64,000 nucleotides of DNA from an uncultured delta proteobacterium (GTDB taxonomy: Bacteria; Myxococcota; Myxococcia; Myxococcales; Myxococcaceae). The notes under the pieces were generated by a model. The model made no database searches. It worked only from the letters and a program-made list of their open reading frames with translations, and was not told the DNA's origin. Location of the stretch: the NCBI GenBank assembly GCA_963776345.1, contig CAVZMH010000016.1, positions 128,001 to 192,000 on the forward strand. The letters are read 5' to 3'. A program made the translations under genes and the position numbers. Each line of letters starts with the position of its first letter. The first letter of the stretch is position 1. Shown one piece after another: positions 12,759-18,268 of the stretch.

Positions 12759-13844
12759 ATGCAGGTTCCTCCAGCGATGCCGAGGCGGCGGTTCGACCTG
12801 CGCGCCGTGGGCCGCCGCGTGTTCGGCGCGCGGCCCGGACGCAGGCTCTACCTCGTCGTGGCCGCGGCGATCTTCGTCCTGGTCGTCTGGGGGGTATGCA
12901 CGGTCTACGTGCGGCCCAACGAGTTCGCGGTGAAGCAGGTCACCGTCGGGCGCCACAAGGGCATCCTCCCCGAGGTCTACTACCCGGGGCTCCACTTCGT
13001 GAGCCCGGGCACCGAGCGGCTCCACGTCTTCCCCACCGACCTCCAGTCGCTCGACCTCACCAACGACCCCACCGAGCGGCCCAAGGACGACAAGCGGGTC
13101 ACGCCGGCGATCAACATCCAGACCTCGGAGGGCTACACCGTCACGGTGGACGTCTCGGTGCTCTACCGCATCGAGGACCCCTACAAGGTCCTGACCACCA
13201 TCGGCCCGGGGAAGCTGTTCGAGGACGCGCTGGTGATCCCCCGCACCGAGCAGCTGCTCCGCAAGCGGCTCGGCGAGCTGGACGCCGAGGAGTTCTACGA
13301 CGTCCACAAGCGGATGGCGCGATCCCACAACGTCCGGGAGGAGATCAACGCCGAGCTGGTGCCCAACGGGATCCGGGTGACCCACATCTTCCTGCGGCGC
13401 TACGCGTACGACGGCCGCTACCAGGCCGCCATCGAGCAGCGGAAGATCCAGGACCAGACGGTCTTCAAGAACATCGCCGAGGCCGAGCTGTCCACCGCCA
13501 CTGCCGAGCGCGACCGGGTGGTGGCCCTGGGACAGGCGGCGGTGCGGGTGGAGCTCTCCCGCGGGGACGCGGAGAAGAAGAAGCTCGACGCCGAGGCGGA
13601 CCTCTACTCCCGCCGGCAGCGCGCCGCGGGCGAGCTGGCGGTGTCGCTGGCCGAGGCCGAGGGCACGCGCCTGGAGAACGAGGCCCTCCGCGGCGTCGGG
13701 GCCGAGAACCTGGTGGGGCTGAAGATGGCGGAGGTCCTCCGAGGGACCAGGGTCATCGTGGTGCCCACCGACGGGGAGTCGGGCGTCAACCCGCTCGACC
13801 TCCGCTCCGCGCTGAAGCGCTTCGACGTGAAGGGGGGCCCATGA
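12759..13844 (+). CDS. SPFH/Band 7 domain protein with N-terminal TM anchor and coiled-coil tail
   Basis: TM helix, then YVRPNEFAV, PGLHF, IQTSEGYTVTVDVSVLYRI, YQAAIEQRKIQDQ and an AEA-rich tail; start uncertain (12750 GTG, 12759 or later ATG). Confidence 0.85.
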   Translation: MQVPPAMPRRRFDLRAVGRRVFGARPGRRLYLVVAAAIFVLVVWGVCTVYVRPNEFAVKQVTVGRHKGILPEVYYPGLHFVSPGTERLHVFPTDLQSLDLTNDPTERPKDDKRVTPAINIQTSEGYTVTVDVSVLYRIEDPYKVLTTIGPGKLFEDALVIPRTEQLLRKRLGELDAEEFYDVHKRMARSHNVREEINAELVPNGIRVTHIFLRRYAYDGRYQAAIEQRKIQDQTVFKNIAEAELSTATAERDRVVALGQAAVRVELSRGDAEKKKLDAEADLYSRRQRAAGELAVSLAEAEGTRLENEALRGVGAENLVGLKMAEVLRGTRVIVVPTDGESGVNPLDLRSALKRFDVKGGP

Positions 13845-14905
13845 TGAGACGCCTGCTCTGGCCCTTGCTCCTCTCGCTGCCGCTGGCGGGCTGCACCTGC
13901 CACTCCACTCACAGCACCGAGGTCGGAGTGCTGACCCGCCGGGCAAGCCTCGGCGGGCTGCTCGGAAAGCCGGGCATCCAGACCGAGGTGTACGCGCCCG
14001 GAGCGACGTACATCTTCCCGGTCTTCCTCACCGACTGGCACACCTTCGACGTCTCGCTGCAAAATCTGGTGATGATCCGGGACCCGAAGAAGGGTGGAGA
14101 CCGGAACGCCGAGGACGATCTCTTCTTCAAGACCATCGACGGAAACGACATCCGGGTGGACGTGACGGTGGCCTGGGCCGTCGACCCGAGGCGCGCGCCG
14201 TATCTCCTGAACAAGGTGGGCGACAGCACCGACCAGGTGAAGGAGAAGCTGGTGCGTCCCGCGTGCCGGAGCGTGGTGCGCGACGTCCTGAACTCGCTCC
14301 GGAGCGAGGAGTTCTACGTCTCCGAGAAGCGCTTCGCCAAGGCAGCCGAGGCGCGGGATCTCCTGGCGGCGGTGCTCGAGCCCGAGGGGATCCTGGTGCG
14401 GCAGGTGATCCTCGGCGAGCACCACTTCAGCCCCGAGTACGAGAAGGTCATCCGGGACAAGAAGCTGGCCGAGCAGAACAGCGAGCGGATGCGGAGCGAG
14501 GCCCGCGCCGCGGCCGAGCAGGTGAAGAGCGAGCTGCAGAAGGCGAAGGGCACCGTGAACCAGCAGCTCGCCGCCGCCCAGGGCACGCTGGACACCGCCA
14601 GGCTCGCCGCCGACGCTCAGCTGTTCCAGAACCAGAAGCAGGCCGAGGCGCTGGTGGCGGAGAAGAAGGCCCGCGCCCAGGGGGTCAGGAAGCAGAACGA
14701 GGCGCTCGCCGGGAGCGGCGGGACGGCGCTGGTGAAGCTGAAGATCGCCGAGGCCCTCGCCGGGAAGGATCTCTTCTTCCTGCCCGGCGGCAAGTCGGGC
14801 GTGGGCATCCAGACGCTCAACCTGAACCAGCTGCTGCAGGCGGTCACCGCGCAGCAGGCGGTGCAGTCCGTGGAGCCCACCAAGCCGGCCGAGACCGTGC
14901 GCTGA
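13841..14905 (+). CDS. SPFH/Band 7 domain lipoprotein
   Basis: Signal peptide ending in lipobox LAGC; EVGV, FKTIDGNDIRVDVTVAW, FSPEYEKVIRDKKLAEQ, coiled-coil tail; ATGA-coupled to the previous gene. Confidence 0.85.
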   Translation: MMRRLLWPLLLSLPLAGCTCHSTHSTEVGVLTRRASLGGLLGKPGIQTEVYAPGATYIFPVFLTDWHTFDVSLQNLVMIRDPKKGGDRNAEDDLFFKTIDGNDIRVDVTVAWAVDPRRAPYLLNKVGDSTDQVKEKLVRPACRSVVRDVLNSLRSEEFYVSEKRFAKAAEARDLLAAVLEPEGILVRQVILGEHHFSPEYEKVIRDKKLAEQNSERMRSEARAAAEQVKSELQKAKGTVNQQLAAAQGTLDTARLAADAQLFQNQKQAEALVAEKKARAQGVRKQNEALAGSGGTALVKLKIAEALAGKDLFFLPGGKSGVGIQTLNLNQLLQAVTAQQAVQSVEPTKPAETVR

Positions 14906-14981: not shown

Positions 14982-16565
14982 ATGACCGCCCCGGCGCACC
15001 CGCGCATCTCGTACGACACCGTCCCCTACCCCACCTTCGCGCAGCGGCAGACGCATCCCGACCGCCTCGCGGTCCAGGCCACGCTCCTGGGGATGACGCC
15101 GGCGCCGGTGGAGCGGTGCCGCGTGCTGGAGATCGCCTGCGGCGATGGCAGCAACCTCGTCCCCATGGCCTTCCATCTTCCGGGGAGCGAGTTCGTCGGC
15201 GTCGACCGCGCCGGCGCCCCGATCGAGCGCGCGCGGGGCATGGCCGCGGACCTCGGGCTGGGGAACGTCCGCTTCCTCCGGTGCGACCTCGCCGAGCTGC
15301 CGGCGGACCTGGGCTCGTTCGACTACCTCATCGCCCACGGCGTCTACTCCTGGGTCTCGCCGGAGGTGCAGGACGCGCTCCTCGCGGCGTGCCATCGGCA
15401 CCTCTCCGCCCGGGGCATCGGGTACGTCAGCTACAACACCTACCCGGGCAACCACCTCCGCCAGATGGTCCGGGAGATGATGCTCTTTCACCTGCGCGGG
15501 GTGGACGATCCCGCCCGCCTCCTGGAGCAGGGCATCGCCCTGGCGCGCTTCGTGGCCGAGTCGCAGTCGAGCCCCGACGCCTACGGCCAGCTCCTCCGCA
15601 TCGAGCTGGAGCGCTTCCTCAGCGTGGACGGCAACTACCTGCTCCACGACACGCTGGAGGAGCACAACCTCCCGCTCTACTTCCACGAGTTCGCCGAGCG
15701 CGCCTCGCGGCATGGGCTGCAGTACCTCGCCGAGGCCGACTTCCACGAGATGCTGGACTGGGGGTTCCAGCCCGAGGTCTCCAAGACCCTCGGCCAGCTG
15801 GGCAGCAACCGCATCGCGCGCGAGCAGTACCTGGACTTCCTCAAGTGCCGCTGCTTCCGGCAGACCCTCCTCTGCCACCAGGACATCCCGCTCGACCTCT
15901 CGCTCCGACCCGAGCTGGCCCGCCGCTTCCTGATCGCCGGCCCCTCCCGCCCGGAGACGGACCAGGTCGACCTCGACCGGCGCACGCCCCAGCGCTTCGT
16001 CCATCCGCAGGGGGCCTCCCTCCGCACCGACTGGCCCGTGGCCAAGGCGGCGCTCCTGCTCCTCGGCGAGCGCTGGCCCCGGGCCCTCCCCTTCGACGAG
16101 CTGCTCCGCCTCTCGCTCGCCGGCGTCCCGGAGGGGGCCGCCGGCCTGTCCGAGCCGGACGCCGCGGACGAGCTCGGCGCGATGCTGCTGCGCGCCTACG
16201 CCTCGGGGCTGGTCGAGCTGCACCTGCACGCGCCCGTCGCCCCGCCCGCCTCCGAGGGGAAGCCGGTGGCCAGCGCGCTCACCCGGTGGGAGGTGCGCTC
16301 CGGCCGGCGGCGGGTCACCGGGCTCTACCACTCCACGATGGCGGTCGACGACGAGCCCACCGCCCGGCTGCTGGCGTGGGCCGACGGCTCGCGCACCAGG
16401 ACCGCGCTGCGCGAGGCGCTCGCCGAGAGCCTGTCCCGGCCGGGGGAGATCCGCATGCCCGACGGAGCGCCCGCGGCGTCCATCGAGCAGGCGAGGAGCT
16501 TCCTGGTCGGGTCCTTCGATCGGACGGTGGACCGGCTGGTCCGGATGGGGCTGCTGGTCGCCTGA
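14982..16565 (+). CDS. Class I SAM-dependent methyltransferase with methyltransferase regulatory domain (rickettsial PKMT-like architecture)
   Basis: YDTVPYP..QTHPDRL, RVLEIACGDGSNL, FDYLIAHGVYSWV, SYNTYPG, YLLHD.LEE.N.PLYFHEF, EQYLDFL..R.FRQTLLC. Confidence 0.85.
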   Translation: MTAPAHPRISYDTVPYPTFAQRQTHPDRLAVQATLLGMTPAPVERCRVLEIACGDGSNLVPMAFHLPGSEFVGVDRAGAPIERARGMAADLGLGNVRFLRCDLAELPADLGSFDYLIAHGVYSWVSPEVQDALLAACHRHLSARGIGYVSYNTYPGNHLRQMVREMMLFHLRGVDDPARLLEQGIALARFVAESQSSPDAYGQLLRIELERFLSVDGNYLLHDTLEEHNLPLYFHEFAERASRHGLQYLAEADFHEMLDWGFQPEVSKTLGQLGSNRIAREQYLDFLKCRCFRQTLLCHQDIPLDLSLRPELARRFLIAGPSRPETDQVDLDRRTPQRFVHPQGASLRTDWPVAKAALLLLGERWPRALPFDELLRLSLAGVPEGAAGLSEPDAADELGAMLLRAYASGLVELHLHAPVAPPASEGKPVASALTRWEVRSGRRRVTGLYHSTMAVDDEPTARLLAWADGSRTRTALREALAESLSRPGEIRMPDGAPAASIEQARSFLVGSFDRTVDRLVRMGLLVA

Positions 16566-16589: not shown

Positions 16590-17657
16590 TCAGTCCGAGC
16601 TGCCGGAGCCGCCGGACGCGCCGAAGGCGATCCGCTCGCAGTACATCTCACCCTTGATGGTGCGGTACTTCTCGGCCGCGTTGGCGTTCACCGGCGCGAC
16701 CCGGAAGACCCCCAGGTGGCTGAAGCTCAGGGTGAACAGCGGACGGAGGCGGGCGTCGAGGTAGTCCAGCGTCCCGCTCCGCTCCCGGTCGTCCCCGTTG
16801 TTGCCCTGGACGACGAAGTCCTGGTGCCAGTCGTAGAAGGACTGCGCGTGGCTGTCGGGGACGGTCACCACCAGGTCGGAGAAATCCACGCCCGCCGGCT
16901 GCTTCTGGACGTCGCGCGTCTCTCCGACCGCGTTCTCCACGATCTTCTGCTTGATGGTGATGGCCTCGATCTTCAGGGCGCGCGAGGTCGCGTCGGCGAG
17001 CCCGTCGATCTTCAGCTTGAAGTCGGAGGTGCGCCACTTGTCCGCGACGATGTCGAACTTGATCGCCGCGCCGCTGCCCTTCTTGGTCCGGGTGAGCTCG
17101 GGGGAGAACTTCACCGTCATCTTGGCCGTCGCGCGCGAGGAGGCGTCGAGCGCCGGCAGGTCCACCTCGGAGAGGAGCGCGTTCGAGAACTCGAGACGGG
17201 AGAGCTCCCGGGCGCTCTGGTCGGACTCGATCACCGCGCCGGTCTTCGGCTTCGGCTGCAGGGTGAGGGTGTCCTGGATCCACTGGTAGAAGGCCTTGCT
17301 CATCCCGGTGCCGCAGTTGACCGTGATGTCCTCGTACTTGATCGCGCCGATGTGCTTCTTGGCGAAGCCATCGGGTCCGACCTTCTCGGTCACCACGTCG
17401 CCCACCGCGCTCCCGCCGTCCACGGACTGGATCCAGCCGGCGAAGGACCCGTCCAGCTCCAGCCCGAACTTCGCGGTGGCGCGCGAGGCGAAGCGCAGGG
17501 CGGCCTCGTCGCTCGCGACGGCGGCGGTCGCATCGGCCGCCGCCGGATCCCCCGGGGCACCCGCGTTCTCCGCAGCAGCGACTCCGCAGCCCGTCCCGGC
17601 GACGGCGGCGGCGGTGACGCCGAGCGCCTTCAGGAACTCTCGCCGGTCGTTCGACAT
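16590..17657 (-). CDS. Tat-signal protein with two tandem phage tail-tube (T4 gp19/Afp1-like) domains
   Basis: N-terminus MSNDRREFLK + hydrophobic stretch + possible lipobox GTGC. Repeat 1: FGLELDG..GW...G..KYEDITV..G..S..FYQW..GAVI..D..E..R.EF.NA...PALDA. Repeat 2: FKLKIDG..P..VDFSDLVV..FYDW..RSGTL.YLD. Confidence 0.75.
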   Translation of the reverse strand: MSNDRREFLKALGVTAAAVAGTGCGVAAAENAGAPGDPAAADATAAVASDEAALRFASRATAKFGLELDGSFAGWIQSVDGGSAVGDVVTEKVGPDGFAKKHIGAIKYEDITVNCGTGMSKAFYQWIQDTLTLQPKPKTGAVIESDQSARELSRLEFSNALLSEVDLPALDASSRATAKMTVKFSPELTRTKKGSGAAIKFDIVADKWRTSDFKLKIDGLADATSRALKIEAITIKQKIVENAVGETRDVQKQPAGVDFSDLVVTVPDSHAQSFYDWHQDFVVQGNNGDDRERSGTLDYLDARLRPLFTLSFSHLGVFRVAPVNANAAEKYRTIKGEMYCERIAFGASGGSGSSD

Positions 17658-17770
17658 CCGTAGACCCCCGGTCCAGAGGGGGAACGGTTCCACACCCGCT
17701 CGGCCGCCCGCAAGACGCGGGGCCCCGGAAGCCGCGCTCGGGCCCGGGTCCGTTTCACCCCTGGGCGAGT

Positions 17771-18268
17771 TCAGGGGGCGCGATCGAGCGTGTTGCTGCC
17801 CGAGATCTCGCAGGTGAACGTGCCGAGGGTGCTGGTCTGCGTGGCATCGAGGCTGAAGACCTCGATCATCTGCGAGGCGTCGCTGGGCTTGAGCTCCATG
17901 AGCAGGCTCTTGAGCTTGTAGAGCGTGGTCATCGGGTTGCCGAGCCCATCGGTCCCGCTCACGGTGCACTCCTCGCCGGCCACTCCGCCGGCGTGCGTCG
18001 CGGTGGTCTGGACGACCTTGAACCGGCAGCCGTCGGGGTTCTTGCGCACGAGGGTCCCGGCCTCGTCGACAATCTGGAAGCCGCTTCGCGTGAGGTCGAC
18101 CGTGCGCGAGGTCGTGTAGCAGTTGACGAAGCTGAAGGAGCCCTGCTGGTACTGCCACACGCCTAGGAAGCCCGCCCCGCCTCCACCGCCGCCACCACCC
18201 CCGCCGCACGAGGCCAGCAGCCCCAAGGTGAGCAGCAGCATCGAGGCCGGGCGAAGGAATGAGCGCAT
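17771..18268 (-). CDS. Lipoprotein with Gly10 linker and beta-rich domain containing 4 Cys
   Basis: MRSFLRP..LLLTLGLLASC lipobox, then G10 and GFLGVWQY (lipocalin-like GxW start). Confidence 0.75.
   Translation of the reverse strand: MRSFLRPASMLLLTLGLLASCGGGGGGGGGGAGFLGVWQYQQGSFSFVNCYTTSRTVDLTRSGFQIVDEAGTLVRKNPDGCRFKVVQTTATHAGGVAGEECTVSGTDGLGNPMTTLYKLKSLLMELKPSDASQMIEVFSLDATQTSTLGTFTCEISGSNTLDRAP

Follow-up and report, generated by a model that had tools for sequence, protein, structure and literature searches.

To our knowledge, in phages, tailocins, eCIS and T6SS alike, tube proteins occur only as machine parts that are assembled in the cytoplasm. The window, a stretch of 64,000 nucleotides from an uncultured delta proteobacterium, encodes a tube protein (P0002) that starts like an export substrate. 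What does a tube protein do when it appears to leave the cytoplasm without the machine to which it should belong? A sequence-only reading of the window had proposed that the gene codes for a domesticated phage tail tube, and we followed this proposal from the protein to its genome, its family and its possible roles.

A tandem tube protein behind an export signal

The tube gene has exactly the boundaries proposed in the sequence-only reading and lies on the minus strand (Table 1). Its product begins with MSNDRREFLK and a hydrophobic stretch, continues with AGTG-C24 and an Ala/Pro/Gly tether, and carries two gp19-type tube domains. The make-up described earlier (twin-arginine start, hydrophobic stretch, cysteine, Ala/Pro linker and two related repeats) was confirmed by the sequence and by Pfam and NCBIfam matches: PF06841 matched in two stretches (Pfam; E 2.8e-17, 63.2 bits, cut-off 28.2), and TIGR02241 scored slightly below its cut-off (NCBIfam). 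The two halves are 22% identical across 105 aa (E 2e-6), and domain 2 alone matched PF06841 weakly (E 6.2e-4). A gp19 pattern had been seen in both repeats; it holds for domain 1, but domain 2 departs from two of its motifs, KY.DIT and R..F.NA, which only domain 1 matches exactly.

Table 1 Features of the tube gene and its surroundings, in positions of the window
Feature	Position	Strand	Basis or remark
Exported (predicted) tandem tube gene, P0002	16590..17657	minus	355 aa; Pfam and NCBIfam matches, codon usage
Twin-arginine motif DRREFLK, residues 4-10	17628..17648	minus	sequence; TIGR01409 above cut-off
Signal peptide, residues 1-23, and lipobox Cys24 (17586-17588)	17586..17657	minus	predicted Tat/lipoprotein
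Flexible Ala/Pro/Gly tether, residues 25-61 (~37 residues)	17475..17585	minus	low conservation
Tube domain 1, residues 62-195, long hairpin 84-108	17073..17474	minus	PF06841 E 1.6e-11; model
Tube domain 2, residues 205-346, long hairpin 233-259	16620..17045	minus	structural alignments
Upstream conserved element with Shine-Dalgarno-like GGGGGT	17658..17678	minus	common to L001 and L002
Convergent SAM methyltransferase with PF10119 regulatory domain	14982..16565	plus	Pfam
165-aa lipoprotein-like gene with poly-Gly tether	17771-18268	minus	no Pfam match; 113 bp upstream, co-oriented
Pair of related SPFH/Band 7 genes	12777-14905	plus	kept with the methyltransferase in L001 and L002

The start call is supported by the relatives P0003-P0009, which use the same start codon except that P0006 was called 12 residues earlier, and by the shared GGGGGT element 7 nt upstream of the start. 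A Shine-Dalgarno-type function of this element is suggested by its sequence and by its presence in L001 and L002. A scan for promoters and terminators at the gene found none, and in small shares of four RNA runs the matches to P0002 were short pieces only, mostly less than 90% alike. With a GC3 of 0.97 and a codon-adaptation percentile of 90, the gene is fully adapted to its host genome; the codon-adaptation index failed to put ribosomal genes on top and was therefore used for amelioration only.

An AlphaFold2 model of residues 54-346, based on an input alignment of 103 rows (A1), reached a pLDDT of 92.4 and a pTM of 0.88. Both of its domains were covered by the duplicated tubes of P74-26 (8ed0; Z 17.4, rmsd 3.7, 268 aligned residues), SH-Ab15497 (8xan; Z 17.1) and T5, whose pb6 (5ngj, 9iny) gave Z 13.3; these full-length alignments comprise 239-268 residues at 6-11% identity. 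Single domains of P0002 matched the tubes of PVC, AlgoCIS, Anabaena CIS and T4 with Z 12-13, the CIS tube structures 6j0n, 7aeb and 6j0b were among the structural matches, and Hcp was found at Z 8-10. A search of solved structures by sequence returned a single weak match (8bl4, E 0.002), and the ESM Atlas contained two clusters of the same family (0.92-0.93), neither naming a function, with a recognition score below threshold. From PF06841 and the model matches we conclude that the fold is that of a duplicated tube, with two tube domains in tandem as in pb6. The earlier comparison with T5 pb6 stands as far as the duplicated fold is concerned, but at 6-9% identity pb6 is a structural analogue only.

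The Tat signal model TIGR01409 scored P0002 above its cut-off (17.9 versus 16.7 bits), and PF10518 (TAT_signal) below it (19.8 versus 22.7 bits). An N-terminal [STDNE]RRxF[LFM] occurs in 8 of the 3852 ORFs that a simple gene finder predicted in the source genome, so the motif of P0002 exceeds chance, and the genome encodes TatC (E 1.1e-39). Given DRREFLK, the hydrophobic stretch and TatC, P0002 is predicted to be exported by Tat. Cys24 fits a PROSITE-like lipobox pattern, as do 12 other signal-bearing rows out of 78. It is kept in P0003-P0012 and P0017 and absent from the sisters P0013-P0016 and P0019; the lipobox of P0002 has Gly at position -3, and an AxA site follows it. The lipobox is thus less certain than the Tat signal, and P0002 may be lipid-anchored at Cys24.

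We compared the gene with those of four relatives (L001, L002, L020 and L021, in this order). Residues 1-29 carried 0, 1, 1 and 0 non-synonymous versus 11, 8, 16 and 12 synonymous changes. No other part of P0002 is as constrained, and the signal is under strong purifying selection. Together with the position of the start upstream of the twin arginines, this speaks against a true start downstream of the motif. The tether is nearly unconstrained (residues 30-61: 15-20 of 32 identical, dN/dS 0.39-0.89), and dN/dS was 0.35-0.47 for tube domain 1 and 0.30-0.43 for tube domain 2.

Injection-machine genes in signal-bearing and signal-less genomes

The source assembly (G000; 5.1 Mb, 24 contigs, 98.4% complete) contains no other PF06841 match than the P0002 gene. 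No match was found in it for the sheath (PF04984, PF17482), baseplate J (PF04865), the T6SS sheath VipB (PF05943) or hub/VgrG (PF05954), nor by tblastn with sheaths of the family or with the terminator, CIS_tube and hub proteins of L073, L088, L057 and L100. When the proteins of five CIS-type loci were used as tblastn queries, the matches in the assembly were the tube gene and ordinary flanking genes only. The same sheath search matched all ten control genomes with single-domain or signal-less tubes. The lack of sheath, baseplate and spike genes, noted before for the 64 kb, therefore holds assembly-wide for the CIS and phage-tail families searched.

The genes around the tube gene are of housekeeping type (the methyltransferase, the SPFH pair, cytochrome and lipoprotein-like genes) and do not resemble a phage or prophage tail operon. 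On its downstream side, the SPFH/Band 7 pair and the methyltransferase are conserved in L001 and L002. As a partner, the PF10119 methyltransferase was rejected, since it adjoins the tube gene in only 5 of 21 other signal-bearing loci (L001, L002, L021, L007 and L079); it is probably not part of a tube system. The 165-aa lipoprotein-like gene was rejected as well, because L001 and L002 do not have it next to their tube genes. Among the loci read, recurring neighbours of exported copies were confined to one genus. SAM methyltransferases of the PF10119 or DUF7059 type do recur beside tandem tube genes of unrelated hosts, which may be chance (14982-16565 in the window, L007:10962-15013, L079:5362, L092:2172-3692, L097:3-980 and L057:3-1307), and one methyltransferase type is also fused to the tube.

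Across the family, we related the signal to the flanking genes in two sets of loci. Set 1 (L001-L115) comprised 95 loci after removal of 15 duplicates or non-hits and 5 single-domain or fragment loci; five starts were reassigned by hand from upstream frames, a locus was called CIS-adjacent when the tube gene stood beside a sheath, a terminator or a small conserved gene, and 13 signal-less short-flank loci, 2 methyltransferase fusions and 4 truncated rows were left out of the count. None of the 21 signal-bearing loci was beside CIS genes, as against 45 of the 55 signal-less ones (10 were not). The held-out set 2, obtained by three phylum searches (28 loci minus 3 duplicates, 25 in all) and classed by eye, gave 0/7 and 6/18, respectively. 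Both sets together thus contain 0/28 signal-bearing versus 51/73 informative signal-less loci beside CIS genes, and full-length CIS-adjacent tubes were signal-less at 51 of 51 loci. Fisher's test for set 1 (p 1.5e-11) overstates the difference because the loci are related, and we claim no p-value. We conclude that signal and CIS context exclude each other across the family. The close homologues of P0002 keep the signal and have no CIS genes beside them, rather than being signal-less members of CIS or prophage loci.

At the level of genomes, 14 of the 15 that carry a signal-bearing copy gave no sheath match (completeness, given for six of the 15, is 92-99%), among them five close relatives (92-99% complete). 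The exception, G691, has an exported tandem tube and a lone sheath gene (L145:1159-2226) with no tube or baseplate neighbour; the only tandem tube in this genome is the exported orphan. G363, which has a signal-less methyltransferase fusion, gave no sheath match.

Orphan status does not need a signal, since 22 of the 73 signal-less loci are also orphan. All 12 signal-less orphans of set 2 are in genomes with a sheath elsewhere (six genomes). Orphan tandem tubes without a signal were observed at loci that are conserved but not of CIS type: at L123, L134, L136, L137 and L139, at L125, L129, L131 and L132, and at L032, L058 and L101. Most of these genomes hold a CIS elsewhere, with up to 3 extra copies, and at L058 and L101 two tandem tube genes flank an uncharacterised 137-aa gene. 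Such orphans are possibly accessory tubes that act in trans.

Family and descent of the tandem tube

At E 1e-30 or better, the family comprises 1847 clusters (50% identity), the two-domain make-up being checked for part of them. Heuristic classification of the top 150 clusters gave 32 Tat, 52 Sec-type, 36 signal-less, 25 otherwise extended and 5 truncated N-termini, so that 84 of these 150 representatives start with a Tat or Sec-type signal, a share that is inflated because the search profile includes the signal region and favours signal-bearing rows. Among 121 homologue rows, the N-termini were Tat in 44, Sec-type in 17, without signal in 55 and other in 5. Counted per genome, the family is rare (10/351, 4/301, 3/251, 9/351 and 1/201 in separate genome sets), and the distribution of the gene within the genus is patchy: 3 of 12 other genomes hold it, one of them (G008) as a 42% identical copy at another locus.

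The hosts of signal-bearing copies include Myxococcaceae, Anaeromyxobacteraceae, Polyangiales, Fimbriimonas, Chthonomonadales, Symbiobacteriaceae and Bacteroidota/Kapabacteria, and Sec-type signals were found in Symbiobacteriaceae as well as in diderm phyla. Within the exported group the signal has switched among Tat, Sec and lipoprotein forms. Tat thus does not appear to be special, as Sec-type and lipoprotein signals seem to do the same job in the family.

Signal-less CIS copies are about 49% identical to P0002. In L147, the order of genes is Pvc16 terminator, sheath, tandem tube, small conserved gene, second sheath, single tube, CIS_tube, hub, two OB-fold spike genes, gp25 and baseplate J, and it is similar in L073. 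From viral contigs, 92 candidate stretches yielded one family locus, with a CIS layout. Since the signal-less CIS copies are already tandem and viral contigs are nearly empty of the family, we conclude that the duplication predates export and took place in a cellular CIS lineage. The phage origin proposed earlier has to be changed accordingly: a tube was probably domesticated, but its source was an eCIS-type locus with an already duplicated tube and not a phage. Sequence and genome context give good support to the domestication itself. An origin of the tandem by fusion of adjacent paralogues was considered in view of L016, where two single tubes stand in a row, but found no support, as the second gene scored poorly against both half-profiles.

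The loci L147 and L073 point to an eCIS-type lineage in which the first tube gene is tandem (L147:15151-16062, L073:7962-8891), and two tandem tube genes stand in a row at L072, L087, L088 and L119. In this lineage, a trimeric tube is predicted to lie beneath a six-fold sheath. In the literature searched we found no description of this lineage, which the family brings to light.

In a FastTree of 204 rows, the signal-bearing rows were scattered among CIS rows. A single signal-bearing clade was rejected by an AU test with 46 rows, including two long branches, under LG+G4 (p 0.015), but not with 32 rows, no long branches and a better-suited mixture model (p 0.24); the trees of the family are without a firm root. 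We see an even chance that the inner tube detached from eCIS repeatedly, in many phyla, and with a signal became a one-gene envelope ring, a sheathless nanotube or an anti-injection decoy. Because the two AU tests disagree, we hold back the claim of repeated origin.

Several known systems share features with P0002. Duplicated siphophage tubes belong to the virion, are assembled in the cytoplasm around a tape measure and are not known to carry an export signal. The tubes of T5 (pb6), P74-26 and SH-Ab15497 are sheathless and have the same two-domain layout as P0002, but at 6-11% identity to it they were likely duplicated separately, and unlike them the family of P0002 is nearly absent from viral contigs. 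Hcp is single-domain and hexameric and leaves the cell via the T6SS without a signal peptide; it has the same fold as P0002, and its ring is able to hold clients, but T6SS sheath and VgrG were not found in the source genome. TasA and chaperone-usher pili are exported by a signal peptide and then assembled outside the cytoplasm. This is the route that we propose below for P0002, although their fold is unrelated and P0002 has no adjoining dedicated peptidase, usher or anchor gene.

The eCIS tubes (Afp1/Afp5, Pvc1/Pvc5, Cis1; PF06841, TIGR02241, NF053769) belong to the same domain family and fold as P0002, which differs from them by two domains per chain, an export signal and a genome without sheath, baseplate and hub; against the CIS1 family model NF053769 it scored 21 bits, far below the cut-off of 220. 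Of the eCIS features, the gp19 tube domain was found for P0002, whereas sheath, baseplate J, hub/spike, CIS_tube, terminator and a signal-less tube were not. In one survey, baseplate J (Afp11) together with Afp1/5 is the screening criterion for eCIS (PMC6899500). In the portions consulted of three eCIS surveys (PMC8213781, PMC12210884, PMC6899500) the word 'orphan' is absent and no exported or fused tube is named. Our full-text literature searches showed no paper on signal-bearing or tandem CIS tubes; locus tables of these surveys may list tandem ones.

Possible roles of the predicted exported tube

The genome has no injection machine, yet it keeps a doubled tube behind a conserved export signal, which makes re-use of the tube in the envelope likely. 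We propose, with a probability of about 0.5, that P0002 is an exported doubled eCIS tube that assembles by itself into membrane-tethered trimeric rings or short sheathless stacks and serves as an envelope scaffold. The folded monomer would pass through Tat and, likely lipidated, would hang on its flexible tether, either in the periplasm or on the cell surface. Self-assembly outside the cytoplasm would then give trimeric, pseudo-hexameric rings or short sheathless stacks, and the rings may act as a structural or display scaffold. Export and lipidation are suggested by the N-terminus, ring assembly by analogy with T5 pb6 and P74-26, and the scaffold role by the lack of a fixed partner gene and by exported members in which the tube pair is fused to other domains (choice-of-anchor D/Ig-like, DUF4352, DUF4214). 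No cytoplasmic cofactor seems to be needed, since Sec-type signals serve other members, and P0002 likely acts alone, as no partner gene recurs.

Duplicated tubes form trimeric rings and polymerise alone when purified or overexpressed (PMC10034513, PMC5717097). In P74-26, two long hairpins make nearly all ring-to-ring contacts. A lone trimer of this tube is unstable, and its N-terminus joins in assembly (PMC10034513). The lengths of both stacking hairpins are kept in P0002 and in 61 and 65 of 78 signal-bearing rows. The ratio of conservation between exported and CIS copies was 0.57-0.66 for hairpin 2, 0.65 for the tip of hairpin 1 and 0.8-1.1 for most core strands of domain 1. Relaxation in the exported group is strongest in loops, the stacking hairpins among them, and is not specific to the hairpins because other loops relax equally. 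Hairpin lengths that are kept, a relaxed sequence and a conserved core point more to rings or short stacks than to a rigid filament of great length. The same forms are favoured by lipid anchors, which, if present on every subunit, would get in the way of a long free filament. Several points argue against the scaffold reading: the N-terminus of P0002 is replaced by the tether, unlike that of P74-26, the domains show a dN/dS of only 0.30-0.47, G691 is an exception, the gene is patchy and the lipobox uneven.

The main rival to the scaffold is a role in immunity: in the envelope of cells that make no CIS themselves, the exported tube mimic would cap or poison tubes arriving from related injection machines or phages, or sequester their lumen-binding effectors. 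Descent from a CIS tube and about 49% identity to CIS copies would suit such a decoy, as would the near-restriction of signal-bearing copies to sheath-less genomes (14 of 15) and a patchy, mobile gene such as the displaced copy in G008; any export route would suffice, and in P0123 and P0161 a single chain joins several different tube paralogues of CIS. We nevertheless consider it unlikely, because no known defence genes are associated in the loci read, the fully codon-adapted gene lies among housekeeping genes, and dN/dS below 1 indicates no diversifying selection.

That the rings hold clients in their lumen like Hcp, or stack into a duct that spans the periplasm, seems rather improbable. The fold relation to Hcp (Z 8-10) speaks for a carrier, and the fusions of the pair to methyltransferase, patatin and peptidase/amidase domains and its position behind encapsulin genes suggest a general carrier module; however, no transporter, secretin or client gene is co-inherited, and Sec-type copies in Symbiobacteriaceae and diderm phyla mean that no single envelope architecture is needed. 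Quite improbable, too, is a re-use of the fold alone, in which exported monomers or small oligomers would have gained another binding surface and given up tube rings: loops and hairpins do diverge in the exported group, where mean identity is 0.49 versus 0.63 among CIS copies, but column conservation correlates between exported and CIS copies (r 0.70), core strands and the PALD loop are still conserved, and hairpin lengths are kept. That the gene is a stray part or relic of a CIS or prophage located at another site in the genome, its signal-like N-terminus being due to chance, is very improbable and largely refuted, for although a locus could be missing from 24 contigs at 98.4% completeness and signal-less orphans occur in genomes with a distant CIS locus, five family searches and tblastn found no CIS gene, the five close relatives are also without sheath and the signal is the most conserved part of the protein.

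New in the scaffold proposal is the system of exported machine-less tubes, to which we assign a function tentatively; the fold itself is known. For this fold, release from the machine and export by Tat or Sec would be a new fate. If the tube assembles, it would represent a new kind of envelope structure made from one gene, or else a means of defence against injection machines, and if tubes were detached and re-used in this way, a new class of surface structure (or of anti-injection decoy) born from a weapon is hidden in more than 1000 clusters annotated 'phage tail protein'. The family is large, and one gene is enough to study it in a laboratory strain. A further study describes gp19 genes in Myxococcota that are highly transcribed and linked to sheaths (PMC11937823). 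A metagenomic gp19 match or transcript alone does not equal a weapon.

Other members of the family combine tube domains in further ways. P0123, a protein of 1943 aa from a Bacteroidota record, has a Sec-type signal, Ig-like domains, a CIS_tube domain, a single gp19 domain and two tandem units. Chains of this type (also P0140 and P0161) have six tube-fold domains with DUF4214 inserted; six is the number in one ring, and a single-chain ring or a stack of fixed length is conceivable. In P0144 (2774 aa), the tandem tube lies inside a polyprotein with peptidase S8, amidase, PG-binding and PLD-like domains, and in P0129 (519 aa) a shortened tube pair is fused behind a patatin domain. In a second signal-less class, the chain ends with a long linker and a conserved peptide resembling ILSGEYPxRFTRLR (P0068, P0078, P0083, P0084, P0086, P0089, P0096, P0100 and P0118, and also P0025, P0035, P0055, P0067 and P0097).

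Signal-less orphan tandem tubes were also observed directly behind a family 1 encapsulin-like gene (PF04454) at L005:354-2954, L078:57-2420 and L082:789-2626. The tubes of L005 and L078 have an N-terminal methyltransferase, and those of L005 and L082 a flexible tail that ends in a conserved ...LRFR[AT], which is also present in P0053, P0072 and P0074. This peptide loosely resembles a published targeting consensus (PMC8346489). A capsid-derived shell thus stands beside a tail-derived tube, and the tube is possibly its cargo.
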